DNA of 64,000 bases from Candidatus Bathyarchaeota archaeon (GTDB lineage: Archaea; Thermoproteota; Bathyarchaeia; Bathyarchaeales; DTEX01), in contig CAVQNT010000006.1 of the NCBI GenBank assembly GCA_963714275.1, positions 480,788 to 544,787 on the forward strand. Reading direction: 5' to 3'. The notes under the pieces are model-generated. The model saw nothing but the letters and a program-made list of their open reading frames with translations. It ran no database searches and had not been told where the DNA came from. Below are positions 3-23,948 of this stretch, one piece after another (position 1 is the first letter of the stretch; every line of letters begins with the position of its first letter). A program made the position numbers and the translations under genes.

Positions 3-92
3 GGAGACGAGATGAATGCATTCAAAAAGGGGGTCGCAGTTAAAGTACGTAGAGGAGACTTGGAGAAAGTTAAAAAGCCTACGAAAAAATAG
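3..92 (+). CDS. 3' end of a PUA-domain protein (archaeosine TGT-associated PUA type), truncated by the window edge
   Basis: Own translation GDEMNAFKKGVAVKVRRGDLEKVKKPTKK*. EMxAFxxGVAVKVRRG is a typical archaeal PUA C-terminus. Confidence 0.6.
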   Translation, partial: GDEMNAFKKGVAVKVRRGDLEKVKKPTKK

Positions 93-116
93 TATGTGGC
101 AAGAGGAGTGTGTGAA

Positions 117-2461: not shown

Positions 2462-2855
2462 ACAGCCACAACCTCTACTATTTTTATATCATCCATCATA
2501 TTTTTAGCGACGTAGGAATCCTGAATGGTTGAGATCAAGGAAGTACTAACCGCAAAGACATAATTTGAAAGAATCGGGGCGCATAAACATGTCAAATGAC
2601 TAGGCTTAAATAGCAAATTAGCGAGTGAGCTAAAACTCATGTACCATTAGTGTCTGGATTTATATTATTTGAATATAATTTGGAAATAAATCAATAATTT
2701 ATTGAATTATTACGAGCATAGTTCATAGACTAAAAGCCAATCATGATAATTCTCCTTAGGGATTTTTTTCTTACTGGGTAAAAAATTTAAATCCGTGCTC
2801 AGAAACAGTGTAATTACATATTATGAGCATACGCTGTAAGGAGTGGTTTGTGAAC

Positions 2856-3836
2856 ATGAAGGCACGTATTGCCACAATTTGTCATGGAGGAAACTTCCAC
2901 AATACCTTTGAGGAAAATCGCAAGCACGTTATGGGAGTCTTGGATCTCGCGCTTCGCCTGAAACCTGACTTGGTTTGTCTCCCTGAAGCCTTCACAACAG
3001 CCTCCGTGAGTGACAAGTCACTTACCGAATTTTTCGAGCCCGTCCCTGGTCCGACAACCGATGCTGTCGCGGAGAGAGCAAAGGAACACGGTTGTTACGT
3101 CATTTGTCCCATCAAGGTACGGCGCGACTCGAAACTGTGGAACTCGGCGATTGTCATAGGCAGGTCAGGCGAGATTGTCGGCACATACGACAAGGTTCAT
3201 CCAGTCACCAGTTCAAGCGACTACACGGTGTTTGAAGAAAGGATAACACCGGGAAGAGAGTTCCCCATTTTCGACTTGGACTTTGGACGAGTTGGAATCC
3301 AGATTTGCTTCGACATCGGTTTCCCGGAGGGTTGGAACGAATTAGCCCAGAAGGGAGCCAAACTGGTTTTTTGGCCATCAGCGTATAATGGAGGGTTTCC
3401 GCTTCAGGTTTATGCGTGGCTGCACCACTATTATGTCGTGTCTTCGGTTTCCTCCGATAAATCCAGAATCATTGACCCTTGCGGAGTGATTCTTGCCGAA
3501 ACGGATCAGCACGTGAACGTCGTCTGCCGCGACATTAACCTGGACTACGCCGTTTCGCATTATGATTTCAACTATAGCATCCCAGACAGAATCATGAAGG
3601 CTTATCCAGACCGCGTGGAGGTGCGGTCTCATCTGGATGAAGGTCACTTTCTGTTGGAACCTGTCGATGACGCCATAACGACAAAGCAGCTTCAACAGGA
3701 ATTTGGTTTCGAGTCCGTTTTCCAGTATTTTCAGCGGCACCGAGAAGCATACGAGTCAATTCACCGAGGAAAATTGCCTGTTCCTCAAAGGGCGCTGCAC
3801 GGGGACAGACCTCAGTACTCAAAAGAAGACGAGTAG
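2856..3836 (+). CDS. Carbon-nitrogen hydrolase (nitrilase superfamily)
   Basis: Glu-Lys-Cys triad motifs LVCLPEAF, YDKVH, IQICFD. Confidence 0.9.
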   Translation: MKARIATICHGGNFHNTFEENRKHVMGVLDLALRLKPDLVCLPEAFTTASVSDKSLTEFFEPVPGPTTDAVAERAKEHGCYVICPIKVRRDSKLWNSAIVIGRSGEIVGTYDKVHPVTSSSDYTVFEERITPGREFPIFDLDFGRVGIQICFDIGFPEGWNELAQKGAKLVFWPSAYNGGFPLQVYAWLHHYYVVSSVSSDKSRIIDPCGVILAETDQHVNVVCRDINLDYAVSHYDFNYSIPDRIMKAYPDRVEVRSHLDEGHFLLEPVDDAITTKQLQQEFGFESVFQYFQRHREAYESIHRGKLPVPQRALHGDRPQYSKEDE

Positions 3837-3932
3837 CTACGAAACGTGTAAAACTGATAAATTGATTGAAGGAAGCAAAGAACCTTTAACGACAACAATA
3901 AAATATATTGCATATTACGTGACTAAATCCGT

Positions 3933-5187
3933 GTGAATGGTATGAAGACAATCGTTGAGGAAAGAAAGGAAACCGAGGTCGCTGCTGAAGTTGACGTGGT
4001 GGTAGCTGGCGGAGGACCAGCTGGCTTAGCAGCAGCAGTCGCAGCTGCCAGAAACGGGGCTGACACTATTCTGGTTGAACGTTACGGGTACCTCGGCGGA
4101 CTGGCTACAGGAGGACTCGTCATATGTTTGGTCGAAACAGACAGGTATGGCTACGGGATATGCCAAGAAGTGATTGACGGTCTTTGCGATTTGAAAGCTG
4201 CAAAGTTGAACAGAGCCAGTGGCGAAACGCCTCGTTGGGTGGAAGGAGCTAGTTTCAGTGGCGAGGAATCTTGGAGCTTTGACCCTCAAGCTTTAAAATA
4301 CGTGGCAGACAAGATGGTGACCGAATCTGGTGCAGACCTTCTGTTTCATTCATATGTTGCTACTTCTGTCGTGAAGGAGAAGAAGGTTCAAGGATTAATT
4401 GTTGAAGGGAAATCTGGAAGACAGGCTATTTTAGGCAAGGTTGTAGTAGACACAACTGGAGACGCTGATGTAGCAGCAGCCTCTGGTGCCCCCTTCAATC
4501 TGGACAGGCATCCATGGGGGATAAACCTCGAATGTAGAATCGGTAATGTCGATATTGAAAAAGCCCTTGAATGGAAAAGAGAGAACCAAAAGACTTTCGA
4601 AAAGCTCATGAAGGAACTTGGAAAGGACGTCGGAATCATAGGCTGGGGAGGAGATGTCAACAGGGGCATTGTTTGGAGTCACGGTCCACACTCCTATGAA
4701 GCTGATGGATTGAATACTAAGCACCTATCAAAGATCGAAATAGATTCAAGAAAGAAGATTATTGAAGCCCTAAAGTTTTACAGAAAAAATGTGTCTGGAT
4801 TCGAAGCAGACTTTCGTGTTAGAGTTTGCTCCCCAAATCGGCGTACGCGAAACACGTCGCATAATGGGAGAGTATACTCTAACTAAAGAAGATGCGGTTG
4901 CTGGAAGAATATTCGACGATGCGGTCGCAAACGGACCATTCGGCATTCCTTACCGATGCTTGGTTCCCAGAGAAGTTGACGGACTCCTAGTGGCAGGAAG
5001 GTGCATATCCACAACGCATGAAGCCCAAGGTATCATAAGGAACATCCCACCTTGCCTCATAACTGGCCAAGCAGCAGGCACAGCCGCAGCCCTCGCAGCT
5101 AAAAAAGGTGTCAAACCCCGAAAACTGGATGTCCGCCTTTTGAGAGAAGCCCTTAAAAAACAGGGCGTTAAGATAAAGGCTTCATGA
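3933..5187 (+). CDS. FAD-dependent oxidoreductase (FAD_oxidored family), frameshift near 4805
   Basis: DVVVAGGGPAG, VVDTTGDAD, then IGVRETRRIMG, IPYRCLVP, LLVAGRCIS and GQAAGTAAAL across ORFs 3933..4886 and 4789..5187. Confidence 0.9.
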
Positions 5188-5250
5188 AATACGTATGTTT
5201 GATTCCCCGATTGTTATTGTTTATATGATCTCTTATGCTCATTGAAAGTC

Positions 5251-5700
5251 ATGCCAGCATTCGATAAACGCAAAAAAGCTGCCATCAGTTGGGCTTTAAG
5301 CAGGCTCGAATCGACCGAATACAGAATTTAGTGTTTGGGCTTTGTTGAAGACGCCTACGAGAAGGGTGCAGGCGTAGAATTCGCAGGATTCTACTTTGCT
5401 AAGGAGGCAGCAGACAAACTCGACGCTGGACGAAACACGGGTATTCCCACTCTTGGAGCCTTTGTTTTCTACGATTGTTGGGGAACCATAAACGGAAAAT
5501 ACCGTAACTGGGGGCATGTTGGACTGTCGATTGGTGAAGGAAAGGTGGTTCACGCTTGGGACAAGGTTCGTGTCGACAATTACTTAGATGTTCAGAACCT
5601 GCAAGCAGCAGAAGGATGGACAAATCCCCAGTATGTTGGGTGGGCTCCAGTAGAGGAGTATCCACGCGCCAAAAAACATGACAAAAATTCAAACAAGTAA
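5251..5700 (+). CDS. NlpC/P60-family (papain-like) protein with an in-frame TAG at 5329-5331
   Basis: ATG 5251 is in frame with ORF 5335..5700: ...AISWALSRLESTEYRI*CLGFVEDAYE...WGHVGLSIGEGKVVHAW (Cys, His, His catalytic pattern). Confidence 0.7.
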
Positions 5701-5709
5701 TACGAGTTT

Positions 5710-6423
5710 CTACAGGTTTTTCTTTAGTGGGCAGTTCATTGTCACTCTCAGCATTTCCGCGTAATAGTCTTTTCCGGACTTTGCTTTGAGCGGACGTTCG
5801 AGCCTGAAGTCTGCTTCGACGTTTGCTTCTCTGCAGACTTCTCGTAAGGGACAGACATGGCAACGAACGACCCGTGAAACCTGCGTGCTAGTTATGACGG
5901 GAATGGGCTTCGCAGGCGCAGCAAGCATTGTTTCTTCTTGGGTATTGAAGGACTTTAGAAGGAATATGAGTATGGTTAAGCCCATGAGGAAGTCGCCTAC
6001 TTTAACATAAAAAGTCGATGCCGTCACAAGAAACCAATTGCTGAGCGTCGCCCCTTGAAGATAGGCTAACACAAAACTAGCAACGAAAAAAGTCAGTAAT
6101 GCAAATGACGCGAACTTAAAAATTTTTTCACGGAGTCTCCAAATGCTGAATAATGCTATGAGCCCAAGGACCATCAAGCCCAGATTAATGATTGCCCCAA
6201 GAATGCTGGGTAATGAAGCCGAGGTGAGACTTAAAATCTGCTGGACAATTGTAGAGACTCTAAATCCCGTTGAGGTTGCCCTAACTGTGCCCCAGTATCC
6301 GCCAAAAGCGAACGTTTGGGTTCCAGCTTGGTTTATCTGAAACCACCCAACTGCTAAGGCGACAACGAGGAGAATGGCCCCTATCTTAAGCCACATGTTT
6401 AACTTTTTTTCCTGCAAGGGCAT
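5710..6423 (-). CDS. Multi-pass membrane protein with a C-terminal Cys cluster
   Basis: Several hydrophobic helices, then RCHVCPLREVC...MNCPL. Likely start MPLQEKK. Confidence 0.6.
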   Translation of the reverse strand: MPLQEKKLNMWLKIGAILLVVALAVGWFQINQAGTQTFAFGGYWGTVRATSTGFRVSTIVQQILSLTSASLPSILGAIINLGLMVLGLIALFSIWRLREKIFKFASFALLTFFVASFVLAYLQGATLSNWFLVTASTFYVKVGDFLMGLTILIFLLKSFNTQEETMLAAPAKPIPVITSTQVSRVVRCHVCPLREVCREANVEADFRLERPLKAKSGKDYYAEMLRVTMNCPLKKNL

Positions 6424-6507
6424 TGTTGACCTGTGGGCGAATTGTTCGCTCAATTTTACTGCTCCTTTTATGGTTTGTATTTTAGGTAGCATTCGGATTT
6501 AAGCCTA

Positions 6508-7668
6508 ATGAGTTTCCCGAAAAACATTAAATATTGTGCGGTCCTATCTTCCTTTTGTTTCCCGTTAAAGGCACAGTCTGGTGTTCAGCGAGCATTGAAA
6601 ACATGCATTACGTATCATGAAAAGTTTCAGCAGTATGACCTAGGAGCCAACCATCCCTTCAGAGGTGACCGTTTTGTCAAGGCGAAGGTTTTTTTTGACG
6701 AAAAAGGATTGATGCAGTCACCGGACACCATGCTCATTCATCCCAACCCGATAGAACGAACAGGATTACTTAAGGTGCACACGGAGGAATACGTGGACCT
6801 CATTTACCGTCTGGCTGAACTGGGCAAACCATACGACATTGACACTCCTGTCTCCAAAAACATCGTTGAGGGACTAACTTACATCATCGGCGGAGTAGTC
6901 GAGGCGGGAACAGTTCTTTTTGAAGGCAAAGCTGACCGAGCTGTTGCTTTAGGAGGAGGCTTTCACCATGCGGGCAAGGATTATGGTGGCGGATTCTGCC
7001 TTTTCAACGATATCGCAGTTTTGGTTGAGCATCTCCGCGAAAAATTTAATCTACGCCGTTTTCTCGTCTTGGATTATGATGTGCATTTCGGGAACGGCAC
7101 AAGCGACATTTACTATAAAGATCCATGCGTGCTTTTCATCTCGTTGCATCAGGACCCTCACACGATCTTTCCGGGAAGAGGATTCGTCAATGAAATCGGC
7201 GAAGGAGAAGGAGAGGGCTTCAACGTCAATGTCCCACTTCCCATGAGGACAGGTGAACAGGCATACCTCTACGCGCTGAGAGACGTTTTTCCTCTGCTTG
7301 CTGAGGAGTTTAAGCCCGACATCATCATAGCGAATGGTGGAAGCGATGCTCACTTCGCTGACCACTTGGGCAGTCTCGGATTGACAGCTAAGGGATTCTT
7401 CGAGATATCCAGAATCATATCTGAAGTCTCAAAAAAGGTATGCAGCGGGAAAACCATTCTACTAATTACGAGTGGCTACAACATCTCAGTTTTGCCATAT
7501 TCTTGGTATGCTTTAGCATCTGGGATCGCTGAATACGAGCTTAATAAAGATGCGATTGAGGACTATTACCCTGCACCTCGTGACCCGTACCAGAACCAAC
7601 GCGAGGTCGAAGCGATAGTGAAGGAGCTTAAAGGGATTTTGAAACAGTATTGGAACTGTTTTCGGTGA
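6508..7668 (+). CDS. Histone deacetylase family / AcuC-like protein
   Basis: GGFHHA, GGFCLFNDIA, LDYDVHFGNGT, SLHQ, FPGRG, GSDAH motifs. The true start is probably downstream of 6508. Confidence 0.93.
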   Translation: MSFPKNIKYCAVLSSFCFPLKAQSGVQRALKTCITYHEKFQQYDLGANHPFRGDRFVKAKVFFDEKGLMQSPDTMLIHPNPIERTGLLKVHTEEYVDLIYRLAELGKPYDIDTPVSKNIVEGLTYIIGGVVEAGTVLFEGKADRAVALGGGFHHAGKDYGGGFCLFNDIAVLVEHLREKFNLRRFLVLDYDVHFGNGTSDIYYKDPCVLFISLHQDPHTIFPGRGFVNEIGEGEGEGFNVNVPLPMRTGEQAYLYALRDVFPLLAEEFKPDIIIANGGSDAHFADHLGSLGLTAKGFFEISRIISEVSKKVCSGKTILLITSGYNISVLPYSWYALASGIAEYELNKDAIEDYYPAPRDPYQNQREVEAIVKELKGILKQYWNCFR

Positions 7669-7686
7669 AGCACAATCAATCATTGC

Positions 7687-8259
7687 CTATAAATATTTCA
7701 CCAGTTTCAATGTCTCTCTGAATTCTGGTGTTCCCGCCTTCTTGAGTAATTCGTAAATGAGCATCTCGGCTGAAACGACCGTTACTCCGCTTTGTCTCAT
7801 CCGCTGGATTGCTGTGGCTTTGTCTTCTAGTTTCCTCGAAGACGTCGCATCCTCGACAATGCACATTCTGAAGCCATTTTCTAATCCCTCAATAGCAGTC
7901 TGGGTTACGCAAATGTGTGTCTCTATTCCCGATAGTATGAGCGTCTTAACTTGGATTCTTGTAAAGGTTTCTCTGAATTTCTGTGAGCCGAAGCAGCTGA
8001 ACTCTAGTTTCTCTATGGGCTGAAGATTTGGGACAAGTCCCTTAATTTGGGGTATCGTCTGCCCTAAGCCCTTTGGGTATTGTTCAGTCAAAATTACGGG
8101 AATTTTCATGATATGTGCAAACTGTATGAGCTTAACCAGATTCTCTGTGAGTTTTTCTTTTTCAGCCATATGAGCGAAAAGTTTTTCTTGGACATCAATT
8201 ACGACTAGGGCTGCTGCTTCCTTAGAAACCAATCCTGTCCTCATTTTCGCCTTCACCAA
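7687..8259 (-). CDS. Isochorismatase-family cysteine hydrolase (YcaC/ISOC-like)
   Basis: LVVIDVQEKL, TEQYPKGLG, KLEFSC, GIETHICVTQT. Confidence 0.92.
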   Translation of the reverse strand: MVKAKMRTGLVSKEAAALVVIDVQEKLFAHMAEKEKLTENLVKLIQFAHIMKIPVILTEQYPKGLGQTIPQIKGLVPNLQPIEKLEFSCFGSQKFRETFTRIQVKTLILSGIETHICVTQTAIEGLENGFRMCIVEDATSSRKLEDKATAIQRMRQSGVTVVSAEMLIYELLKKAGTPEFRETLKLVKYL

Positions 8260-8455
8260 TAATCAGCATATACATAATTATCTACTACAATTGTCTCATT
8301 AAAGCCTATTCAACACTTCATCATTCTTTTTCAAATACTCAAAAATTCCGTGTGCATAAAGAATGGCACCCATTCAAGACACAGTGGCACGATGTAAAAT
8401 GACTTGTTTAGAAAACTTATATACTCATGTTCTCCACGAGTCTTTTGTGAGATAG

Positions 8456-9004
8456 ATGGATTTAGACCAAGCGCTCAGGGGAAGAAGAAGCGTTCGGGAC
8501 TACCTTGACAAAAGCGTCCTAGAAAATCTTGTAAGACAAATAATCGAGGCTGCCACCTTGGCTCCTTCAGCGAAGAACGGTCAGCAATGGCGGTTCATGG
8601 TGCTCACGGACAACGCGAAAAAGGAGTTAACTGACCTCTTCAGGCGTGAACTGGAAAAGGTTTCAGAAAGAATCGGACGCGAAAAGATGGGTTCTTCTTT
8701 CTCGTCATGCAGCATAATGGAAAAGGCGCCAGTCGTGATAATGGTTTGGAACGCTGGAGAAAAAGGCTGGGAAACCGAAGTTCACAGCGTAGCAGCCGCA
8801 ATTCAGAACATGCTGCTTAAAGCCCATGATTTAGGATTAGGCACAGTATGGATCGGCGGCATCTTCTACACGATCAAAGCCTTAGAACGTCAAATCCGAA
8901 AGCATTGGAAGCTGACAGCAGCTGTAGCACTCGGATGGCCAGCCAAAAGTCCGAAGATGCCCTTAAGAAAAACAGTTGACGAAGTCGCCGAGTTTCTAAG
9001 CTAA
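8456..9004 (+). CDS. Nitroreductase family protein
   Basis: RRSVRDY, APSAKNGQQWRF, AAIQNMLLKAHDLGLGTVWIG. Confidence 0.93.
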   Translation: MDLDQALRGRRSVRDYLDKSVLENLVRQIIEAATLAPSAKNGQQWRFMVLTDNAKKELTDLFRRELEKVSERIGREKMGSSFSSCSIMEKAPVVIMVWNAGEKGWETEVHSVAAAIQNMLLKAHDLGLGTVWIGGIFYTIKALERQIRKHWKLTAAVALGWPAKSPKMPLRKTVDEVAEFLS

Positions 9005-12833: not shown

Positions 12834-14051
12834 TTGGCGAAGGTTCAGAAAAGAAGTCTTGTGTTCCGCTCATTCAGCGCTTTTTTATTACTGTTCTTTC
12901 TATCGGTTTTGGTCGTCGGGTCCTTTGTTCCCCCTATTGTCTACGAGCCAGCGGACGATGATTCAGCGAACAGATTCTTCACGATTGCCACCACCGTGAC
13001 CTATGAGAACAGGAACAGCCGAGGAGATGTCTGGCATTTCGCCGACGAAGACAGGGAGTTAGGCTTGTTCATGAACAACAGTTGGCAGACTGTTTACTTG
13101 CTTAACGTTTCGTTTCCTATAGCAAGGTTCGAGGCTGATCATGACGGTAACCCTACGGCTTACATTGATTTTCCTGAATCAGAAATTGGTCCACGCGAGA
13201 ACTTGACTTACGAGGTTTTTTACAGGATCGTCCTTAAGCCTCGGGTTTTGCCACAGATTATTGTGAATGGTTCAGGTAGTTTAGCGGACATACCTGAAGG
13301 TTTGAAGGCTTTATATTGTTCTTCTTCGGGTTCTTGGCAGTCAGACATATCCCTGATTCGTGATTTGGCTTTCAGGATAGTGGGAAACGACACACAGGTT
13401 CTATCAATACTGTCCGATTATATTTTGTGGATCACGCAGAACATTGAATATGGAAGCCTCGATGTTCCCCGTTTCCCTAATGAGACGTTGTTGGGACGCA
13501 CAGGCGATTGTGACGACCAAGCTAACCTTTTGGTTGGGTTATGCTGCACGGTGGGAATCCCCGCTTATCTGCAGATTGGATGCATCTATTTACCGGGCAG
13601 AACCAGTACAAGCAATTATTGGGACGGTTTGTGGACAAACACGTTAACTGACATTGGTTGGCATGGCTGGGCGGTCGTGTACGTGCCTCCTTGGGGTTGG
13701 CTGCCGGTCGACCTGACTTATTCTAGGGGGAACAATTCAGATCCCCTGAGTCACATCACCTCATCGGCGATCATAACAGATCTGACTGTGCAGTACGCGA
13801 ATGTGACAGTGACTGATTATGTTTCGGACTCACGCCGTGTGAAGAACGTCGTAATTTCCGAGATGCGCAGGATCATTACAAGCGACGTCATGGTTGAGGA
13901 GGTTCAGGAAAACGAAACGTTGGAGTTTTCTGTTGGGGCGCCTTCACGGTTTAACGTCTACTTCGTAGTTTTCGTGTACGCAACGTGCGTGGTTATGCCA
14001 TTTTTTGTGTTTTCCAGGTATGTTCGGGTTCGCAAAAGGGCGAATGCTTAA
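12834..14051 (+). CDS. Membrane-anchored transglutaminase-like domain protein
   Basis: N- and C-terminal TM segments. GDCDDQA...GIPA, HGWAVVY and WLPVD give the Cys-His-Asp triad. Confidence 0.88.
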   Translation: MAKVQKRSLVFRSFSAFLLLFFLSVLVVGSFVPPIVYEPADDDSANRFFTIATTVTYENRNSRGDVWHFADEDRELGLFMNNSWQTVYLLNVSFPIARFEADHDGNPTAYIDFPESEIGPRENLTYEVFYRIVLKPRVLPQIIVNGSGSLADIPEGLKALYCSSSGSWQSDISLIRDLAFRIVGNDTQVLSILSDYILWITQNIEYGSLDVPRFPNETLLGRTGDCDDQANLLVGLCCTVGIPAYLQIGCIYLPGRTSTSNYWDGLWTNTLTDIGWHGWAVVYVPPWGWLPVDLTYSRGNNSDPLSHITSSAIITDLTVQYANVTVTDYVSDSRRVKNVVISEMRRIITSDVMVEEVQENETLEFSVGAPSRFNVYFVVFVYATCVVMPFFVFSRYVRVRKRANA

Positions 14052-14113: not shown

Positions 14114-14518
14114 ATGGCAAAGTTTAAAGTTATAGTCTCAGACCCTGAGGATGGAAAGTCCAGCGTGGTTGAACTTGAGGAAAGCCGAGCTGCGCCTTTT
14201 GTGGGCAGAAAAATCGGTGAAACAGTTGATGGCACCGTGCTTGGGCTTTCGGGACACACGGTCATCATAACGGGCGGAAGCGACAAGTCTGGGTTTCCGA
14301 TGAGACCTGACGTTCACGGCGGAATCAAGAAAAAAATACTGCTTGGCCGAGGAGTGGGATTTAAGCCTTCACAAAAAAGTATCAGACGCAGAAAGACGAT
14401 ACGTGGAAACATAATTACGGACGACATAGCCCAGATTAACGTGAGGATTGCTGAGAAACCAGCAAAGAAGCCCAAGAAGACTGAGGAAAAGTCTGAGCCA
14501 GCAAAAGAACCAGCATAG
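14114..14518 (+). CDS. rps6e: 30S ribosomal protein S6e
   Basis: FKVIVSDP, KIGETVDG, ITGGSDKSGFPMRPDVHG, RRRKTIRGN. Confidence 0.97.
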   Translation: MAKFKVIVSDPEDGKSSVVELEESRAAPFVGRKIGETVDGTVLGLSGHTVIITGGSDKSGFPMRPDVHGGIKKKILLGRGVGFKPSQKSIRRRKTIRGNIITDDIAQINVRIAEKPAKKPKKTEEKSEPAKEPA

Positions 14519-15051: not shown

Positions 15052-16017
15052 ATGGAGGAAAAAATGAAAAGAGTTATCGGCAAGATACCTTCGTTGATGC
15101 CACCTATCGAGATAGTTCAGGTTAAGAAGGAAGATCCGCAAGCTAAGGCCTTCGCTGAGCTAGAAGCATTATTTTCTGCGGCAGCAAGCATCGATGCGAT
15201 AAAAATTTTCTATGCTGCAAAAGATGGCATAAAGAGCTCCACTCAAGCCATAATAAAGCTGGACTTAACTCAGAAGAAATATTACACCAATCTCAAAAGA
15301 CTCATCGATACGGGCTTGGTAGAAAGGGATAATGGAGCATATAAGCACACAACACTAGGTAAAATAGGCTTCAAACTTACAGAAGAATTAATGATTGCCA
15401 TTAATCAAAAAGACCGCTTAGATTTGGTTGACAAGTTATCTAAGGCAAAGAACATAACATTCGAAGAAACTGAGGAAATCATGCGCGCAATCCTGAAAGA
15501 TACAAATCTGATATCAGGAGAAAGGATAACGAATCTTTTAGGACCAGTCAGAATGGCAGATACTTGGGATAAAGTCGTCAATGATGTTTTGGATTTAATA
15601 AATAATGCTGAAAAAGAGATCTATTTTGTCACGCAATATTTGGATATGAAAGTTGTTGAATCCCTACTTAAAGCTGCTCAAAGGAATGTTAAAATGAAAT
15701 TCTTGGTTGGTGAAGAAAAAAATATCACTGACGCGGTTCATTTACTTCTAAGATCATTGTTAACTGATCCAAAGTCACTAATGTCTCTTTTCGGATCTGT
15801 AAAATCTCCTGATCTCCGCTATACGGAATTACCTTATACTTTCATAGTGGTTGACGGAAAATATTCAATGGTTGAGGTTCCCAAGCCGCATACCAAATCT
15901 TTTTCACTTGCCTTCTTCTTCCACAACGAAAAGCTCTCAGAAAGGCTCAAGGAATCCTTTAAAGCCCTCTGGGAAAATGCTTCAGAAATATTGATTCTAG
16001 AAAAATTCCCAAAATAG
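15052..16017 (+). CDS. wHTH transcriptional regulator with a PLD-like effector domain (TrmB-like)
   Basis: N-terminal wHTH (KKYYTNLKRLIDTGLVER...YKHTTLG). C-terminal NAEKEIYFVT...FIVVDGKY...FKALWENA. Confidence 0.7.
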   Translation: MEEKMKRVIGKIPSLMPPIEIVQVKKEDPQAKAFAELEALFSAAASIDAIKIFYAAKDGIKSSTQAIIKLDLTQKKYYTNLKRLIDTGLVERDNGAYKHTTLGKIGFKLTEELMIAINQKDRLDLVDKLSKAKNITFEETEEIMRAILKDTNLISGERITNLLGPVRMADTWDKVVNDVLDLINNAEKEIYFVTQYLDMKVVESLLKAAQRNVKMKFLVGEEKNITDAVHLLLRSLLTDPKSLMSLFGSVKSPDLRYTELPYTFIVVDGKYSMVEVPKPHTKSFSLAFFFHNEKLSERLKESFKALWENASEILILEKFPK

Positions 16018-16396
16018 GTTTCTTATCTCTAATTATAATGTAAGGGGTAGAGATATTAGAATAAGAGCTATTTGTGAAGTCACAAATAGGCTAAACATTG
16101 ACTTACATGCTTTCTCATATAGTTTTTCTTCAAAGCTGTTTAGTAGCGGAAAAAGAAACGCGGCGCAATGGTTAAGAGTATTTTTAAGTCTTCTCCAAGG
16201 CCTACATCCTACCATGGTCGATCCTATTCTTCCTCTATTGACCTCCACTATTTCATGCATCAATACGGATTTTTCTCAGGACTAAAAAGTTGGTTGAGCA
16301 TCTTCTGAGCCAACATATTCTTACCAGACTAGTAGAAAGCATTCCCGAAATGAGCTATTATATTTTTTTCTCATACCTTAGAATCCGATAAATGAA

Positions 16397-18737
16397 TCAT
16401 AAAACCCATATTCTAATTCCCAAATTACTGTTAAGCTTTCCCATTTGAGGCGGCAAAACCTCGTCCGCTTTTTTTGTTCTACAAGATATTTTTACCATGA
16501 AGGTGGTTCCCTCCCCAACAACACTTTCAACAGTTATGCTGCCATTTAAAGCCTCCACCAACCGCTTACACACAGCCAACCCAAGCCCTTGGCCCTTAGC
16601 CTTCGTGGTGAACAAAGGCTGGAACATCTTATTTAAGTTCTCCTCAGGAATTCCCACACCCGTATCTTTAAACCTGAAAAACACCTCCTCAGATGTTCCA
16701 GAAACCTTTATCGACAAACGACCACCATCAGGCATAGCCTGCACGGCGTTCAGAATCAAATTCGTGAAGACCCGCTTCAACAAATAAGAATCAGCCAAAA
16801 ATACGGTAGCGTTTTCCTCAACATCAATAGAAACTTTGATTGTCTCAGGAACCTTTATCGCTAACAAGGTTTCATTAAGCAACCTCTTCGATTCAACCTC
16901 AACAAACTCAGGCTTCACCGGCCTAGCATAATCCTGCAAGTCTGAAACAATCTTATTCATGTATTCAACCTGCTCCTCAATAACATCAAGCGATTCCTCA
17001 AGTTCCCCCTTCGATAAAGACCCCAGCTGCATCCTAGCAAGGTAAAGAACATTTACAATAGCCTGCAACGGATTACGAAGATCATGACCCACCATAGCAG
17101 CTGCCTCCCCAATAGCAGCAAGCCTCTGAGACTTCAAGAGGTTTTCTTGTACCTCTTTCAGTTCTCTAGTTTTCTCATCAATCAACTCTTCCAAGTAATC
17201 TGAGTATAACTCATAAATCTGGGTTTTAGGCACCTTTGTCGCTAATGTTCCTAGCAATCTCGGGTAAACCCCGAGAGAAATAGCAACATCTTTATTCAGT
17301 AATAGGACTAACCTCAGTTTATTCAGTATCTCATCAATTTCGTTCTTTGAATCTGTCTGTAGCCAGTCATAAACGGAACTTAAGAAATTGTTGATTGTCT
17401 CGATGACTAACTGCATTCGTTGGTCTGAATATATCCTTTGAATCTGCTCTTTGAATTCCTTGAGCGACACCTCACCATATCCAGTAATTTTTATCGCATT
17501 AATTAAACTAGTTCTGCCAGGAATTTCCATGTTTTGAATCATGCCTGCAATTGGCAACAATATTCTTTTATAGATTCTCAGGCAAGCATCAATTTCGTCC
17601 AAATCATCCAAACTTTCGTCGCGATCAATACTTTCAAGAAATCTCCCTTGAGAGACACCGTATACAAGGTCAGTTTTTTTCAAGATATCCAGGTTATATT
17701 GTATTAAATCGTACGACTTCCACCTAAGCCTATAATCCGCTGCATTGAGAACTCGTAAATAATAGTCAGTTACCTCGTCAGGGGTTTGATATTTCTCGAA
17801 ATACGCCAAATTTTTATTAATCAAATTAATTATATCAAACTTCTCAGGCTCTGTAAACGTAACACCTCCTTTATTAAAGGAAACATAGCCATCAATCTTT
17901 GAGTTTATTAAGAAATCCTTGAACTCGTGGAATTCTTCACCAAGATAGCCTACTGGCAGTATATTGATAATAGACTTTTAAAAATGACGAATAGATTTCA
18001 GAGAAATCCACTAGTTTCTCAACTGATGTGGAAGGCATCTTTTCTTTTAAAGACAGTGCGTACCAAATTGTCAAAAATGCTAGGAACTGCATTATTCCTC
18101 CCATTTGGAAAATCGGATCTAGGGAGCCTGTTGCTTGTAACGCGTTTACTACGGTCGTTCCAAGAATCTGGAAAGATATAAAACTTCCAAGAAGAATAGT
18201 GTACTTTCTTCTGAGTAATTGAGCCCGTGTATTTCTGATTAGAATAAGTAAAGCTAAAACGACCCCGAACAGATATGACACAAAGATGACGCCGACAAAA
18301 ATCAAAATGGGTTGAAAGCTATTAACTTTATATACCCAACCAAGTTCGTTCTGAAAGAATTCATAACTCATTATATAACTGTCTTGAAATATTAAGATGC
18401 TTTGCACTATCGCAGGTAGTAAAATAATCAGAAGAAATCTGAAATCTCTTCTCTCACGAATATTAAAAACAGTGAAGAGGAAAATGGGATAGCACAGATG
18501 GCTACTTAATATCATTATTCTAAAGAACGTCATGGCTGCCGATACATCAGGTGCTGTCCTATAAAGAAAGGTGGTGCATTCCCAAACTGTGACTATCAAA
18601 CCGAATATCAACAAACACTTCGAAGCTAGAGTCCTAGGTCCCTTAACCAAAACGTATATCGAAACAAGAAGTGAGAGAGCTCCACCTATCAAATATTGGA
18701 TTTCATTCATACTTAGTAACTCTTCCAATGTTTTCAT
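16397..18737 (-). CDS. Sensor histidine kinase with an N-terminal HisKA_7TM membrane domain, frameshift near 17940
   Basis: ORF 17937..18737 has about 7 TM helices of HisKA_7TM style. ORF 16397..17824 has H-box VGHDLRNPL, N-box NLILNAVQAM, G1 DTGVGI, F-box FQPLFTTK and G2 GQGLGL. Confidence 0.88.
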
Positions 18738-18873
18738 GTAGTCAAGGCTTTATTGAAATTATGAACCCTTAGTAAATATCATAAAACTGTAAGCTAAAAC
18801 TTAATAGCCTATGATACTGTTAAATATCATCTAGCTAAGTGTAGATATTGCGTTAGCTAGTATCAGTGAATTC

Positions 18874-20508
18874 TTGATGAAGAACGTAAATCTCTGGGAT
18901 AAATACTGCCGATTTTATGAGAAGGACTTTACAGAACAATTAGAGTTTAACAGGAATCGACTGAAATCATACTTCTCAGCTTGGAAGAAGACCGACCTTG
19001 TAAAAGAACTTTGCCAAACTATCCCAGAACGGCACAAAGATGTTCCCATTACAACATATTCAAGCTACCCTATGTTAAGCGAATTCGGCAGAAAAATAAC
19101 ACAAACATCAGAAACAAGCCCCAGAAAACAAGGCGAATTATTCAAAACATATTATGATCACGTCAGTCGCGAAATTGGTTCTTCACTTAACCATTTCATG
19201 GTTGAGCCTTACTATATGTGCGCAAAAACCACAGGCACCACAGGTCAATATAAATGGATCGTTTATGGCGAAACTTTCTGGAAAAACTTTCAACAAGCGT
19301 CCATCGCAACTGCAGTAATTGCCTGTAGCGAAAGCTGGGGAGAAACCAGCCTCAATCATGGAGACAAATCTCTAAATCTAAATGCTGCCGTACCATTGAT
19401 CTCAGGCTGGGGAGCTTGGGCGACCAAAGATATATTGAGTTTAGTCCCTCCCATCGAAATAGCGGATAATCTTCGAGACATGAAGGAAAAATTTAGTCTC
19501 ATACTCAAGCTAATACAGAAAGGCGAAAAAATATTAGTAGCAGGCGGGATTGGCTCAATCTTCTTTATGATATGCAAATATTTCCAGAAGCCCGAAGATT
19601 TCTACAGGGAGTACTACAAATCAATGAACATGGACCTGAAAAAACTTCTCCTATATCTAAAAATCCTATCAATCAAACTAGGTCAAAAAAAGAAAATAAG
19701 AATAACCGAGGTCATGCCACTCAAAGGAGTCCTTGTCGCAGGAGTAGAAGGACGACTTTATCTAGACTTTTTCAGAGAAGAGTTTAACCTAAGCCCACTT
19801 CACATTTATGGATCAACAGAAGCCGGACCACTAATGAGAGGAGACCCAGATAGAAAAGAAGACCTAGTTCCCGAACTTAAAACCAGCTACTTGGAATTCC
19901 TAACAGAGGATGGAGAAATCAGAGAACTAGACGAAGTCAAAAAGGGAGAAGTATACGAACTGGTTGTAACCCCCTTTGGCTCGTTAATTTACCGCTACAA
20001 CATGGAAGACCTTTTAAGAGTCATAGATTTCAGGGATGACGGTATGCCAATATTTACTTTTGAAAGCAGAAAGAAAACCATACTAGAGCTGTATAGCCGT
20101 TACAGAATAACTCCAAACATCATTGTACAAGCCCTTTCCAAGGCAGGCTTAAGAGCATCTGACAAATGGGCAGTTGCTAAGCCCTTAAAGCCTAAAGAAC
20201 ATCTTCATTTTCTAATGGAAAAGGAATGGCCGTACTCTGAAGTTGAAGCAGAGAAAATCATCTTTAATTACCTTCAAGAAACATATCGCACAATTCCGCA
20301 TGGCGGAGATGTCCTCACTGACTATATAGCCCATTATAAAATTAAGAATCCTTCAGAAGTAGTTAAAGTGGAATATTTAAAACCCGGCGCTTTTACTAGA
20401 TACTCAATGAAGAAAGCAAAAGAAGGGGCTCCAATGGGTCAATATAAACCGCCACAAATCATTACAGCTGACAAGATGGATGTTTTCGATACCTTAAGGA
20501 AAATATAG
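18874..20508 (+). CDS. GH3-family acyl acid-amido synthetase (ANL adenylate-forming superfamily)
   Basis: GH3 motifs: VPITTY, KTTGTTGQYKWI (P-loop), IYGSTEAG, YELVVT...IYRYNMEDLLRV, C-terminal GQYKPP. Confidence 0.85.
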   Translation: MMKNVNLWDKYCRFYEKDFTEQLEFNRNRLKSYFSAWKKTDLVKELCQTIPERHKDVPITTYSSYPMLSEFGRKITQTSETSPRKQGELFKTYYDHVSREIGSSLNHFMVEPYYMCAKTTGTTGQYKWIVYGETFWKNFQQASIATAVIACSESWGETSLNHGDKSLNLNAAVPLISGWGAWATKDILSLVPPIEIADNLRDMKEKFSLILKLIQKGEKILVAGGIGSIFFMICKYFQKPEDFYREYYKSMNMDLKKLLLYLKILSIKLGQKKKIRITEVMPLKGVLVAGVEGRLYLDFFREEFNLSPLHIYGSTEAGPLMRGDPDRKEDLVPELKTSYLEFLTEDGEIRELDEVKKGEVYELVVTPFGSLIYRYNMEDLLRVIDFRDDGMPIFTFESRKKTILELYSRYRITPNIIVQALSKAGLRASDKWAVAKPLKPKEHLHFLMEKEWPYSEVEAEKIIFNYLQETYRTIPHGGDVLTDYIAHYKIKNPSEVVKVEYLKPGAFTRYSMKKAKEGAPMGQYKPPQIITADKMDVFDTLRKI

Positions 20509-20517
20509 CCCGTGTCT

Positions 20518-20904
20518 CTAAAATTGGGACCACGAAAGACTGAGTATCTTGCCCGCTATTTCAAAAGACACCTTGTTGGCAGCAATACCTAGGCAGATTA
20601 AGACAGCAAAACCGTACAATGGAACGTAGATCAAATTTAGGCTCGAAGACCACATAATAAAGGCGAATGACTCAAGTAGAACCCTGAATAAATAGACCCC
20701 AGACAATATTAAATACAGAACGTAGTTGTCCCTCGCCACTATAAGGATAGGCAATACTAAAAATATGGCAACCGAGACTAAATTCAATGCCCAGAAGCCG
20801 AGAGGGTCTGGAAAAACAGGCTCATTAACGCCTAATATACCCAAAACAGCAACAATGTTAGCGAAAGCAAGCAACACCAAATACGTTTTCATCTGTCGCC
20901 CCAA
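20518..20904 (-). CDS. Small 4-TM membrane protein
   Basis: Four hydrophobic segments. Co-oriented and tightly packed with the receiver and DUF3227-like genes. Confidence 0.65.
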   Translation of the reverse strand: MGRQMKTYLVLLAFANIVAVLGILGVNEPVFPDPLGFWALNLVSVAIFLVLPILIVARDNYVLYLILSGVYLFRVLLESFAFIMWSSSLNLIYVPLYGFAVLICLGIAANKVSFEIAGKILSLSWSQF

Positions 20905-20910
20905 TTGACA

Positions 20911-21219
20911 CTAGATTCCAACCTCCTTTCTTAAAAGCCGCAGGTAGTCTGCGAATGCGTAATCCTTTCTCCACTTCAGTTCCGCATTTAACCTGGAAAA
21001 TAGATTTTCAAGAATCAAGTCCTCAACAATTGTCGCTCCATTTCCTAGAATTTTGTGTAGAGAATCGGAAAAACACTGGACCCGAGTATCTAATTTCCCT
21101 TTATCATTTTCACCTATAAACTGAAGAAGAGTCAAAGCTGTACGATTATCAAAAACATTTTCCAATACTTCCCTTATTGTCTTTACTAGAATATCATCGA
21201 AATTGATTGTTTTTTGCAT
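20911..21219 (-). CDS. DUF3227 / NitrOD-like archaeal signalling output protein
   Basis: FDDILVKTIREVLENVF...FSDSLHKILGNGATIVEDLILENLFSRL...FADYL pattern, typical of small TACK proteins found next to two-component genes. Confidence 0.6.
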   Translation of the reverse strand: MQKTINFDDILVKTIREVLENVFDNRTALTLLQFIGENDKGKLDTRVQCFSDSLHKILGNGATIVEDLILENLFSRLNAELKWRKDYAFADYLRLLRKEVGI

Positions 21220-21710
21220 TATGCTTCGCCGGTCTTCAGCTTCATCACACGGTTTTCTATCCAATTCCTTACTTTCTCTTCACTCATCTTCTCTACTTCT
21301 TCTTGTTCACCTAGTTTTTCTTTTACCTCCTTCAACAACATTTTCGGGTTAACGGGTTTCATTAGGTACGCGTCTGCGCCCAAGTTCAGAGATTGCACAG
21401 CATTATCGAGCTCTGGGTAACCCGTCACCATAATCTTCATCATTTTAGGCTCAGTCTGATGAATCTTTGAAAGCAGTTTCGTCCCATCCATGTCTGGAAG
21501 CTTAATATCCAGCAGAACAAGATTGTAGAAGTTAGCCTGAAATTTCTTTATGGCTTCTTGACCAGTCCCCGCTGTGTCAACACGATAACCCTCCATATTC
21601 AGTACACCCTCAAGACTCTTGAGGATAACTTGATCATCATCAACAATAAGAATGCTTTTTCCTTTCATTTTACAGCTCACGTCTTGTAGGCTTTTAATCA
21701 AGACATGCAA
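21219..21710 (-). CDS. Response regulator receiver protein
   Basis: ILIVDDD, LVLLDIKLPDMDG, IMVTGY, GADAYLMKP. Confidence 0.95.
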   Translation of the reverse strand: MHVLIKSLQDVSCKMKGKSILIVDDDQVILKSLEGVLNMEGYRVDTAGTGQEAIKKFQANFYNLVLLDIKLPDMDGTKLLSKIHQTEPKMMKIMVTGYPELDNAVQSLNLGADAYLMKPVNPKMLLKEVKEKLGEQEEVEKMSEEKVRNWIENRVMKLKTGEA

Positions 21711-21759
21711 ATCTATTTTATATATGAATTATGAATCTAGGATACAGTTTTTAAAAGAC

Positions 21760-22254
21760 AAAAAAAGCTGCTAGATCTGACCATAGAAGAACCTTTTGTA
21801 ACTCCAACAATAACGGATTTCGTAGGAATCAGTATACCAGCTTTCTCATTACCAAAAAAACTTAATATAATTTAGAATCTTATTTGCTCTAGAATTCTTT
21901 TTCTTAGATGGAGATGCAAATGTTATTTTCATTTAGGTGTTGCTCTTCATTACATTCAAGACAGATGAATGTTGCGTCCAAGATTAAAAGAAAAACATAC
22001 TGATTGAGAAGTGGTAATAGAGTCAACATGCCAATTCATGGATGATTCAATATTGGATGAAAAAAATAAAGGATATTCCCCTTCCCATAAAAGCAGAAAC
22101 TGCTTATTTATCTTTATTAAACAAAATTAGGACAGTAACTTTTCATGGAACAATCGGAAAGGTTCTTGCTATACCTCTCTCAGACCATCCATCTATTTGG
22201 AGTGCTCCAATCCTTGATTTTTACTTCACTAGACATCATCGAATTGCTGTTTAG
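21760..22254 (+). pseudogene. Decayed zinc-dependent phospholipase C-like gene
   Basis: Own translation of 21924-21962 gives YFHLGVALHYIQD, a Zn-PLC-type motif, surrounded by stops and frameshifts. Confidence 0.35.
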
Positions 22255-22260
22255 ACATAA

Positions 22261-22599
22261 CTAGATAACCAGTCCTGAGTATAGTCCTAGGATTACGAGT
22301 ATGTTGTTTATTGTACCTATGTATGATGCAATTGCAAGCCCATTGATACCAAGTGTCCAAGGCTTTTTTCTCGGTAATGTCAATGTGAGTATAGTTATAG
22401 CTGTCCAGAAGATTAATAATGCAAAAACTGGGCTGTATTGCATTTGAGTTTCGTAAAGACCCGTATAAAAGTTCAGACCTATTGTCGTAGTTGTATAGTC
22501 AGATATGATGCCTCCTAGTGCCAGAAAGAAGGGCAGCATCCAAGATTTCAGTATCACGCTTGTTTTCACCAAAAGTCGTTTATAAATATGTATTTTCAA
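22261..22599 (-). CDS. Small membrane protein (DUF5658-like)
   Basis: DYTTTTIGL...LYE motif with three hydrophobic helices. Confidence 0.55.
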   Translation of the reverse strand: MKIHIYKRLLVKTSVILKSWMLPFFLALGGIISDYTTTTIGLNFYTGLYETQMQYSPVFALLIFWTAITILTLTLPRKKPWTLGINGLAIASYIGTINNILVILGLYSGLVI

Positions 22600-23260
22600 T
22601 ATATATTTGTGAAATATAAAATTAACTAACTTAAAAAAGGTGCGAAAGCATCTTAAGAAGGGAAAATCTATAACTCACATTAGCTACTTTTTTCTAAAAT
22701 TTTACAATATTGCTCTCTTTATTATTCTTGAAGTCTTTTTGTAAAATTTTTTTATACCTCTTCTTCTACCTTTTATGCTCCCCCTTTACTCTCTCACACG
22801 TGTGTATAAAAAATGTAAATATATTTTTTTAGGATACTATCTGAAGAGAAATATTTTGGAAGAAATAGAATTAATGAAGAACCAAATTCAGAGAACGAAC
22901 TAAAAAATAAATTTAAGAGAAAATGAAATTGACGTCAAAAAGGCTTTAGACAATTACATGATTAAGCAAGACGAGATTTAGGATGAAATTGAAGAATCAA
23001 ATAGACAAGACTGAAAATATAGGCGAAAAGTTTTTTAAAGAAGACTTGAAAGGATTCGGTGAAATCGAGTCCGGTGTTGTTTATAAAGTAAGAACAGATT
23101 TACCAAAAATAATAACACAAGAACTTTTCATTGTGTTCAAAGGATTTATGGAGTGTAAGGAAAGAATTAGGTGGTAATTGCACCTAAAACGAAAAGAGCA
23201 ATAAAAAGATTGATCGTTTCCATTTTAATCCATCTTAATCATATAAAGTAACTGGCTAAT

Positions 23261-23530
23261 TTAATCAATTCCGAATTCTTGTAGACTATAGAACTGCTGA
23301 AGGTATTCTATGCCTTTTTCAGTGGTTTTAATTAAACCGCCGTTGCCTTCAGAGTTTGCGATTAATCCTGCTTTTTTGAGTTTTTCAAGGTACTCGTCCA
23401 GCATTTTGAAGTTCATGTTCACTCCATATACTATTCTGGTTTTTTTGGCGCCTTTTCTCGCAATCTTCAGAATCTCAGCAACAATTTCTAGGTTACTTCT
23501 TCTTTGAGACATAGACATTTTCGTTAACAT
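23261..23530 (-). CDS. Archaeal winged-helix regulator (HTH_45 type)
   Basis: RRSNLEIVAEILKIARKGAKKTRIVYGVNMNFKMLDEYLEKLKKAGLI...TTEKGIEYL. Confidence 0.88.
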   Translation of the reverse strand: MLTKMSMSQRRSNLEIVAEILKIARKGAKKTRIVYGVNMNFKMLDEYLEKLKKAGLIANSEGNGGLIKTTEKGIEYLQQFYSLQEFGID

Positions 23531-23630
23531 CGTTTTTTACCTCGCTTTTGAATTATGGTTCAATGTTTCTGACTAACACAAGGTTGGACTTCCTAAACTG
23601 AACCTAATGTAAATTCAGTCACTTGCGCAG

Positions 23631-23948
23631 TCATCGCATTAAATGGCTAGAAGACTCCTTTGCCTTTTCAAGGATGTCTTCAGACGGGTTTTTCAAGGGA
23701 GTAATAGGCTCTAGAGGAGTCTCTATCATAGTGTTTTGTATTGCTAAGGCTTGCCTCGACTCTTTAAGTCCTTCCTTTGCCCTTTCAAAAATATCTTCAG
23801 ACGGTTTTATCAAGAGAGTAATAGGTTCTTGAGGAGTTTCTATCATAATGTTTTGTGTTGCCAAGGCTTGCTTAGATTCTTTAAGTCCTTTCAGATAGAG
23901 TCTTGCTCCAAGTTCTATTTCATCAATTTCTTCTCTTTTGTTGAACAT
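23631..23948 (-). CDS. Small protein with two tandem 39-aa repeats
   Basis: KGLKESKQALATQNIMIETPQEPITLLIKPSEDIFERAK / EGLKESRQALAIQNTMIETPLEPITPLKNPSEDILEKAK. GAGGT-type RBS upstream. Confidence 0.65.
   Translation of the reverse strand: MFNKREEIDEIELGARLYLKGLKESKQALATQNIMIETPQEPITLLIKPSEDIFERAKEGLKESRQALAIQNTMIETPLEPITPLKNPSEDILEKAKESSSHLMR
23656..23889. repeat. Two imperfect tandem 117-bp repeats
   Basis: Units 23656-23772 and 23773-23889 aligned by eye. Confidence 0.9.

Follow-up and report, generated by a model that had tools for sequence, protein, structure and literature searches.

In several bacterial systems, CqsA-CqsS and LuxM-LuxN among them (as well as AgrBD-AgrC and ComQX-ComP), an autoinducer synthase is paired with a polytopic sensor kinase. 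In CqsA-CqsS and LuxM-LuxN, the transmembrane domain of the kinase binds the lipophilic product of the enzyme. In plants, JAR1 makes the active hormone jasmonoyl-isoleucine (JA-Ile), and thus represents a GH3 enzyme that acts as a signal maker. Here, we describe an enzyme-sensor pair found in a stretch of 64,000 nucleotides from a Candidatus Bathyarchaeota archaeon (GenBank assembly GCA_963714275.1, contig CAVQNT010000006.1, positions 480,788 to 544,787; hereafter the window), in which the gene for a GH3-like enzyme lies beside that for a sensor with a seven-transmembrane (7TM) domain. The comparison of related loci gives good support to the conclusion that enzyme and sensor are functionally coupled in one module, because the linkage survives changes in gene order, in flanking genes and in the output domain of the sensor, and because the trees of the two genes agree on the major groups. 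As in CqsA-CqsS and LuxM-LuxN, the gene of a putative enzyme for a small molecule adjoins that of a histidine kinase with several membrane passes, and a stand-alone receiver follows downstream. In contrast, the enzyme is here a GH3/ANL ligase and not a pyridoxal-phosphate-dependent or an acyl-homoserine-lactone synthase, the sensor joins a 7TM part resembling G-protein-coupled receptors (GPCRs) to a private cytoplasmic domain, the hosts are archaea, either a kinase or an inactivated KaiC can serve as the output, and the module is known from genes alone. The plant GH3 proteins (JAR1/GH3.11, GH3.5/6 and GH3.12) are the best and only matches of the enzyme in the PDB and have its nucleotide-binding motifs in common with it; however, the similarity (E about 1e-5 to 3e-9) covers residues 309-540 only, the Pfam N-domain is not detected directly, and the plant genes are unlinked to a receptor, their receptors being of another kind. 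By analogy, the archaeal pair may work like CqsA-CqsS and LuxM-LuxN, or like JAR1 as a hormone maker, while being a member of neither kind.

Two further systems come close to one or other half of the pair. OlsH of Singulisphaera acidiphila is a GH3-like N-acyl-ornithine synthase that uses free fatty acids and ornithine, with ATP and Mg2+, and its motifs are, like those described below, divergent but recognisable; going by its description, to which our comparison is confined, the genes of OlsH and of the acyltransferase OlsI share an operon, and the product of OlsH is a bulk membrane lipid (PMC12493201). OlsH shows that prokaryotic GH3s can make lipid-like conjugates; that paper contains neither "histidine kinase" nor "two-component", and its BLASTp survey covers bacterial genomes only (PMC12493201). 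The other half is represented by the archaeal hubs of KaiC-like and DUF835 proteins and by the HisKA_7TM kinases, with which the loci studied here have in common a HisKA_7TM-like domain, a DUF835 output and a KaiC-like ATPase gene upstream; DUF835 is listed as an inactivated KaiC-like domain, whereas "GH3" does not occur in that paper (Galperin et al., 2018; PMC5847659). The private middle domain of our sensor has no name. An earlier account of this DNA, made by a model from the letters alone (the sequence-only reading), had stated that no such system was known to it from archaea. This agrees with our literature search, which covered main texts and found no description of a GH3-sensor pairing, although KaiC neighbourhood tables may hold an earlier mention. 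The pair belongs with the enzyme-receptor signalling pairs, and its components have so far not been described in combination.

Linkage was examined in loci collected around homologues of the enzyme, 23 from species-representative genomes (up to 8 kb per side) and 80 from metagenomes (up to 6 kb per side), which gave 90 distinct loci after removal of overlaps; partners were detected with a profile of the 7TM and middle parts of the sensor (alignment A2). Of the 90 loci, 75 have the sensor gene as the immediate neighbour of the enzyme gene, divergently upstream in 36 and co-directionally downstream in 39, and in the co-directional loci the junctions between the open frames measure -57 to +17 nt. 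Recurrent linkage of GH3 and 7TM genes, the absence of which had been named beforehand as speaking against the sequence-only reading, is therefore what was found. Among the 15 loci with no partner, 13 have 134 nt or less upstream of the enzyme and carry downstream genes typical of the divergent type; these are contig cuts, because the side on which the partner would lie falls off the contig. In another (L114), the contig ends within the 3' part of the enzyme gene, and the last (L108) is considered with the points that tell against our interpretation. The genomes give the same picture. Within 41 related genomes, 14 give a strong match to the enzyme and 15 a match to the 7TM domain, and the two are adjacent in 14 of 14, on one contig and 21-272 nt apart; in the fifteenth genome with a 7TM match (G004), the sensor gene sits at the very end of a 6152-nt contig. 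An even sample of the class (301 genomes) holds the enzyme in 8 and the sensor core in 10, adjacent in 8 of 8, the genomes with the sensor only being G004 and G145. In a sample of the phylum (401 genomes) the enzyme occurs in 19; it is found in 14 of the 17 genomes of one family (f44, genomes within G342-G471) and in 5 of 384 elsewhere, the window genome among those five, and in f44 and a neighbouring family the sensor gene directly follows the enzyme gene in all 5 genomes checked. The linkage of enzyme and sensor is near-obligate across loci, genomes and lineages.

What surrounds the pair varies. In the co-directional loci, the flanks are unrelated between loci (CobD, a radical SAM protein, an Mrr-like nuclease and inositol-phosphate synthase, among others). 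The output part of the sensor is either HisKA/HATPase_c or DUF835, the latter placed after a full middle domain in proteins of 694-718 aa or after a shortened one in proteins of 526-545 aa. In the DUF835 loci, a gene for a KaiC-like ATPase usually lies directly upstream of the enzyme gene (10 metagenomic loci, L036, and L020, whose record is named Nitrosopumilales), and in L023 (record named Thermoplasmata) the enzyme gene stands between two 7TM-DUF835 genes, the N-termini of which match the window 7TM domain at E 3e-9 and 2e-7. The constant part is the enzyme, the 7TM domain and the private cytoplasmic domain; the kinase as such is not constant. The sequence-only reading had proposed a synthase beside a receptor kinase, and while the adjacency holds, the kinase has to be replaced in that description by the 7TM and private domains. 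The same reading had taken the stand-alone receiver, a 117-aa protein (o117), a protein with four transmembrane segments (4TM), a TrmB-like regulator and a winged helix-turn-helix (wHTH) regulator as one set. All five are in the window, but the receiver, o117 and the 4TM protein are confined to the divergent subtype, and the last two are found in some loci only. The alternation of a kinase and an inactivated KaiC on one sensor core provides a natural experiment in the exchange of outputs in archaeal signalling.

Gene trees were built by quick searches from the 52 loci in which both genes are nearly complete, together with the window, the other 38 distinct loci being left out. We distinguished four architecture classes: divergent kinase, co-directional kinase, long inactivated KaiC (iKaiC) and short iKaiC. 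In the enzyme tree (53 sequences), each of the four classes is set apart by a single branch, and the classes need 3 changes, which is the minimum, as compared with about 23 for shuffled labels, and the sensor tree requires the same 3. Moreover, 24 of 50 bipartitions are common to both trees, random relabelling giving a mean of 0.29 and a maximum of 3, so that the congruence for which the sequence-only reading had proposed a test is seen in the major groups. This agreement shows co-inheritance as a unit and not, by itself, co-evolution. The two-gene core is inherited, lost and rearranged together, and feeds two output systems.

The enzyme gene is intact, as the sequence-only reading had it. The open reading frame (ORF) probably starts at the ATG at 18877, the database copy of the protein having 543 aa, and the gene is present in a single copy in the genome. 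GH3_M is matched at residues 336-399 with 36.0 bits (E 7.5e-9) against a Pfam cut-off of 23.6; the Pfam scan found no direct match to the GH3 N-domain (PF03321), and no model matched in an NCBIfam scan. All ten of its sequence matches in the PDB are plant GH3 proteins; E is 5e-6 when the single sequence is the query and 2.9e-9 for the family profile. The nucleotide-binding motifs are TTGTTGQYK (residues 119-127), YGSTE (312-316) and YRYNMED (373-379); in an alignment of 20 sequences (A1), G121, T123, G124, K127, Y312, G313, T315, E316, Y375 and D379 are invariant, and the window enzyme retains all of the residues invariant in the family. For AtGH3.11, the corresponding motifs are given as SSGTSxGxxK-like, YGSSE and YRxGD-like (PMC12493201). 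When 1.84 billion representatives were searched with a profile built from 54 members of the family, a small core family was recovered and, separated from it by a gap, a set of sister proteins that are 524-560 aa long (E 1e-48 to 1e-19). Of the 12 sisters scanned, 11 match the GH3 N-domain and/or GH3_C, and six (P0142, P0145, P0149, P0166, P0168 and P0181) have GH3 N, M and C all above the cut-off. By eye, the N-terminal motif of the family resembles that of the sister GH3s, to which the profile leaves the first ~100 residues of the enzyme unaligned. In a Foldseek search with the low-confidence model of the enzyme, GH3 proteins make up all of the listed rows through rank 24 (E 1.7e-10 to 9e-7, TM about 0.22), PaaK1 first appearing at rank 25. 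Together, the motifs and matches identify the protein as a putative divergent GH3-family ATP-dependent carboxylate-amine ligase. It is presumably cytoplasmic, because it has no hydrophobic segment (maximum KD19 1.57). Although GH3 proteins 80-94% identical to that of the window are known from relatives, the best segment in either locus collection reaches at most 71% identity.

Some of the sister GH3s (P0199, P0176 and P0201) carry an N-terminal multi-pass domain fused to the GH3 part; in P0199 this domain is Pfam PEMT, and one source names the protein "protein-S-isoprenylcysteine O-methyltransferase Ste14". The union of GH3 with a methyltransferase, two carboxylate-modifying activities on one membrane-anchored protein, hints at lipid-like acid substrates for prokaryotic GH3s.

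The sensor partners found in relatives match HisKA_7TM at E 0.00025 to 0.0058. The homologous sensor of L005 was modelled over its first 500 residues with good scores (pLDDT 84.9, pTM 0.81). The model has seven transmembrane helices (TM1-TM7), with a beta hairpin between TM4 and TM5, and, C-terminal to them, a cytoplasmic domain that is all helices apart from two small hairpins. The 7TM part (residues 1-228), to which the wide VIA search was confined, aligns by VIA-align with 7TM receptors at Z 14-17.5 and a root-mean-square deviation of 3-4 Å over 203-224 residues; such values are only modestly above the background of helical bundles and show a common arrangement, not a common function. A Foldseek search with the sensor model gave no match at E<=0.001. 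Lys and Arg are concentrated in loops 1-2 and 3-4 and at the junction of loop 5-6 with TM6, while loops 2-3 and 6-7 have hardly any; this positive-inside charge pattern places the N-terminus outside and the output inside the cell. The conserved polar residues lie mostly in the outer half of the membrane or in outer loops (Q8, Y9, W46, T124, G127, W128, Y130, Y149, Q184, N192, G207 and G208 in the numbering of alignment A4). The middle domain, of ~260 residues, is predicted to be helical and cytoplasmic, and it is conserved in all partners aligned (A2 and A4); Pfam holds no family for it and the Atlas no usable match, and the domain appears to be private to this sensor family.

How might the two proteins work together? 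In the scheme that we lean to, tentatively and at somewhat less than even chances, a lipophilic acyl-amino-acid ligand is produced by the enzyme and read by the GPCR-like 7TM domain. The soluble GH3-type enzyme would, judging from the motifs of its family, adenylate a carboxylic acid with ATP and join the acid to an amine; the product, a lipophilic conjugate of the acyl-amino-acid type, would partition into the membrane or cross it, and would then bind in the outward-facing conserved pocket of the 7TM domain. From there, the signal could leave by either of two routes, one through the histidine kinase with the stand-alone receiver, the small soluble protein and the small membrane protein, the other through the inactivated-KaiC domain with the KaiC-like ATPase encoded upstream. 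Such a system would report the cell's own production or that of its neighbours, as in synthase-receptor pairs. That the acid substrate may be lipophilic is hinted at by analogy with OlsH and its free fatty acids, by the PEMT/Ste14-like fused sisters and by the prenyltransferase gene near the enzyme gene in L108. A role in signalling rather than in catabolism is favoured by the gene content, because no transporter or further pathway enzyme is conserved beside the pair in the loci compared. On a broader view, which is plausible but doubtful, the loci would represent an archaeal family of GPCR-like 7TM receptors whose ligand, an acyl- or isoprenoid-acid conjugate of an amino acid serving as an autocrine or quorum signal, comes from a dedicated GH3 ligase, the core being plugged into two-component or KaiC-type signalling. 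If this were true, the making of signals by GH3 enzymes would greatly predate plant hormones, and an archaea-wide synthase-receptor pair would be at hand. The near-obligate pairing names a candidate ligand maker for an orphan receptor, and it bears on the ligands of the common archaeal HisKA_7TM sensors, on the roles of prokaryotic GH3s beyond the single ornithine-lipid case, and on signalling by self-made small molecules in uncultured sediment archaea (Bathyarchaeia and a Nitrosopumilales-labelled lineage).

A number of observations weigh against a synthase-receptor pair or against the evidence used for it. No exporter is conserved next to the pair in the loci compared, and the tight or overlapping co-directional junctions fit a protein complex equally well. 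One locus is a clear exception to the linkage: on the metagenome contig L108 (2926 nt), the enzyme gene has no sensor gene. Conversely, G145 (L037, G145:C3:1065-5228) encodes a 989-aa 7TM-middle-PAS-HisKA-HATPase kinase followed by two receiver genes, with no enzyme gene nearby. Agreement between the trees would be expected of any two linked, vertically inherited genes, and there are 16 conflicts between well-supported branches, the ten listed lying inside the divergent clade. As to the proteins, GH3_C scores 21.4 bits against a cut-off of 23.6, just below it, and HisKA_7TM (PF16927) 27.1 bits against 28.6 over 210 residues (16-225); the model of the enzyme, made from a 20-row alignment, is too poor (pLDDT 58.9, pTM 0.35) for an analysis of its pocket; and the sidedness of the conserved sensor residues rests on helix limits and charges, not on coordinates. 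Finally, no RNA run containing the stretch was found. The L108 enzyme is 46% identical; a PAS and coiled-coil protein is encoded upstream of it and, by eye, a UbiA-like prenyltransferase with an NDxxDxxxD-type motif downstream.

The linkage itself is identical evidence for a different arrangement, in which the 7TM domain detects a lipophilic or aromatic carboxylic acid from outside and the GH3 enzyme conjugates the same acid inside, to detoxify it, to trap it or to end the signal, ligand and substrate being one. The outward-facing conserved residues of the sensor are equally consistent with this, and plant enzymes behave in this way: GH3.5, GH3.6 and GH3.12 conjugate hormones and benzoates, and plant GH3s inactivate auxin. 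In the divergent type, the enzyme gene is preceded by a promoter region of its own that contains a conserved motif, which would suit a target gene under regulation. However, in the 39 co-directional loci the enzyme gene is co-transcribed with its own sensor gene across tiny or negative gaps, which is unexpected for a response gene; no uptake system or downstream hydrolase is conserved in the loci compared; a DNA-binding domain is absent from the divergent-type receiver; and the co-directional loci lack a nearby receiver, a receiver-like match anywhere in the locus being found in 2 of 39. We consider this arrangement unlikely, though a serious contender. Rather improbable, in our view, is a direct partnership of proteins, in which the enzyme would bind to the private cytoplasmic domain and serve as a co-sensor (a "trigger enzyme") of how well the cell is supplied with the enzyme's substrates, or would covalently modify carboxyl groups of the sensor, following an adaptation logic like that of CheR/CheB on chemoreceptors. 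The constant partner does include a private cytoplasmic domain of ~260 residues and of no known family, overlapping or near-abutting genes suggest equal dosage, the mean column identity of the enzyme (65-71%) exceeds that of the sensor (47-54%), and the first ~100 residues of the enzyme fall outside the profile alignment to the sister GH3s. Yet the short iKaiC partners (526-545 aa) keep the enzyme although they lack much of the middle domain, since their match to the sensor profile ends at ~320-350, and we know of no ANL or GH3 enzyme that acts on a protein carboxylate. A complex prediction for the enzyme (A3) and the cytoplasmic domain of the sensor (A4, residues 225-493) gave a score of 0.00, the mark being 0.32, and is evidence neither way. 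That the two genes have no functional relation, as neighbours by descent only or with a GH3-like housekeeping ligase there by chance, is very improbable, since, although related genomes inherit the same gene order and many of the loci belong to Bathyarchaeia that are related to one another, the pair persists through inversion of orientation, unrelated flanks and replacement of the output domain, occurs in records named Bathyarchaeia, Nitrosopumilales and Thermoplasmata, and consists of two patchy genes that are present or absent together (8 of the 301 genomes of the class sample have both).

The features of the window are listed in Table 1.

Table 1. Genes and sites in and around the enzyme-sensor locus of the window (positions are those of the 64,000-nucleotide stretch)
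Feature	Position	Strand	Basis or remark
Transglutaminase-like gene	12834-14051	+	ORF listing and family scans
Ribosomal protein S6e	14114-14518	+	ORF listing and family scans
TrmB-like regulator	15052-16017	+	Regulator_TrmB, 27.4 bits (cut-off 22.2)
HisKA + HATPase_c ORF (C-terminal piece of the sensor)	16397-17824	-	Frame open from 17977
HisKA_7TM-like ORF (N-terminal piece of the sensor), 266 aa	17937-18737	-	Pfam, just under cut-off
Frameshift site, one extra base in a CC/GG pair	17949-17950	-	Comparison with close strains
Promoter-proximal motif by the sensor start	18745-18784 (core TTATGAA, 18759-18765)		Conserved in the divergent type
GH3-like ORF, 544 aa	18874-20508	+	GH3_M above Pfam cut-off
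Small membrane protein, ~4 hydrophobic segments, 128 aa	20518-20904	-	Hydropathy
o117, 117-aa protein with no family	20911-21264	-	Conserved in relatives
Stand-alone receiver (REC)	21219-21710	-	Response_reg, E 4.7e-30, 104.5 bits
o112, small membrane protein	22261-22599	-	ORF listing and hydropathy
wHTH / Sso10a-family protein	23261-23530	-	HTH_45, E 2.6e-21; NCBIfam Sso10a, 78.3 bits (cut-off 60)

In the window, the sensor is encoded in two pieces. The sequence-only reading had described a HisKA_7TM kinase sharing a divergent spacer of 136 bp with the enzyme gene; the spacer (18738-18873) and the 7TM ORF are as described, but the kinase is not one gene here, being frameshifted as assembled. 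The 7TM ORF terminates in a premature TGA at 17937-17939, and the kinase ORF, with HisKA (44.4 bits, E 2.6e-11) and HATPase_c (93.1 bits, E 2.3e-26) and with no family matched by its first ~280 residues, is in a different frame, the two frames overlapping by 13 codons; the first start codon in the kinase frame is the TTG at 17824, 51 codons into the conserved middle domain. In relatives, 7TM, HisKA and HATPase_c are fused in one protein, which is not so in this assembly, and the sensor is a single ORF of 746-795 aa (779 aa in L008 and in L014). In an alignment with these single-ORF homologues, the reading frame changes between two conserved blocks, "YSSFL" and "LGEE". When contigs of four public runs (X1-X4) were placed on positions 17400-18500, X2 gave no coverage of the shift site, and one contig each from X1, X3 and X4 (95-99% alike) was without one letter at 17949; deleting one base at this position yields a single ORF of 779 aa. 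The Logan contigs identical to the window end at 17947 and restart at 18009, and because of this break the contigs do not distinguish between an assembly error and a private mutation, either of which would account for the extra base. A real shift would probably mean a dead sensor in this genome, beside the intact enzyme, as translation of the kinase piece would begin only after the first 51 codons of a conserved domain. Programmed frameshifting was dropped as an explanation, as close strains simply do not have the extra base and a slippery run is absent. A functional two-piece sensor was also rejected: a natural split exists elsewhere, but here the kinase start falls inside the middle domain. 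The natural split is seen in the L109/L110 lineage (two metagenomes), where the sensor is divided after the 7TM domain into proteins of 255 aa and 302 aa, the latter with DUF835. Breaks in the sensor gene are not uncommon in assemblies; in L019, L050, L070 and L098, it is interrupted by in-frame stops or shifts.

Three further genes accompany the pair in the divergent subtype. In divergent-type loci with enough flank, the stand-alone receiver is kept in 25 of 28, o117 in 30 of 33 (alignment A5) and the small membrane protein in 39 of 42; the three form one operon, convergent with the GH3 gene, in which the membrane protein comes last. The receiver protein and the 4TM protein are present as the sequence-only reading had them, the latter with no family in the Pfam or NCBIfam scans. 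A HisKA and HATPase_c core and a receiver protein, the components of a two-component system, are all present in the window, and the receiver is presumed to be the cognate response regulator of the divergent subtype. At 21217-21221, the TAA stop of the receiver gene shares a base with the ATG of o117 (TAATG), and this overlap suggests that the two are translationally coupled; the start of o117 is probably this ATG at 21219, giving ~102 aa, the listed TTG start at 21264 being 15 codons too early. o117, a small soluble protein, is a possible output or adaptor. The label "DUF3227-like", which the sequence-only reading had given to it, was not borne out: o117 has no match in Pfam even at E<=5, and NitrOD5 (PF11537), which we take to be the former DUF3227, is matched weakly by one of 23 o117 homologues (E 0.058). 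The Atlas neighbour cluster of o117 (score 0.85) has NitrOD5 on 12% of its members, a weak lead.

The intergenic regions of 26 divergent-type loci and of the window contain a motif of ~35 nt on the + strand, TTATTC-N3-TTATGAA-N5-AAT-C/A-C/T-AT, located 20-55 nt from the start of the sensor gene. Its core, TT[AG]TGAA, occurs within 110 nt of the sensor start in 27 of the 27 regions, whereas shuffled sequences gave a mean of 0.9 and a maximum of 4. The motif is probably the promoter or an operator of the sensor gene. A direct repeat of 10 nt, TAAATATCAT, is found at 18773-18782 and at 18821-18830; one copy is overlapped by the motif and the other lies ~47 nt before the GH3 start.

The composition of the region had led the sequence-only reading to speak of an AT-rich island. 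The block 15052-23948 has indeed 37.3% G+C, against 45.6-46.5% in parts 1-9000 and 41001-56000 of the window. It is, however, not free-standing, and a mobile island at 15-24 kb was rejected, the genes being syntenic with the S6e and transglutaminase-like genes in relatives. A lateral replacement or origin of the block may still have taken place, because the gap in composition, ~8 points in the window, exceeds that in relatives, where the cassette is only 2-4 G+C points under its own flanks. The TrmB-like and wHTH regulators were correctly recognized in the sequence-only reading (Table 1). Together with o112, they are context and lie near the module in only some divergent-type relatives; tblastn matches to the TrmB-like gene were found in L002, L005, L006, L007, L008, L009 and L014. 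A genome of the same genus, G001, carries the co-directional subtype, with only 60% identity. Compared with L002, L008 and L014, the five-gene cassette of the window (16397-21710; sensor, enzyme, membrane protein, o117 and receiver) is inverted en bloc and, judging from the coordinates, sits between the TrmB-like gene and o112.

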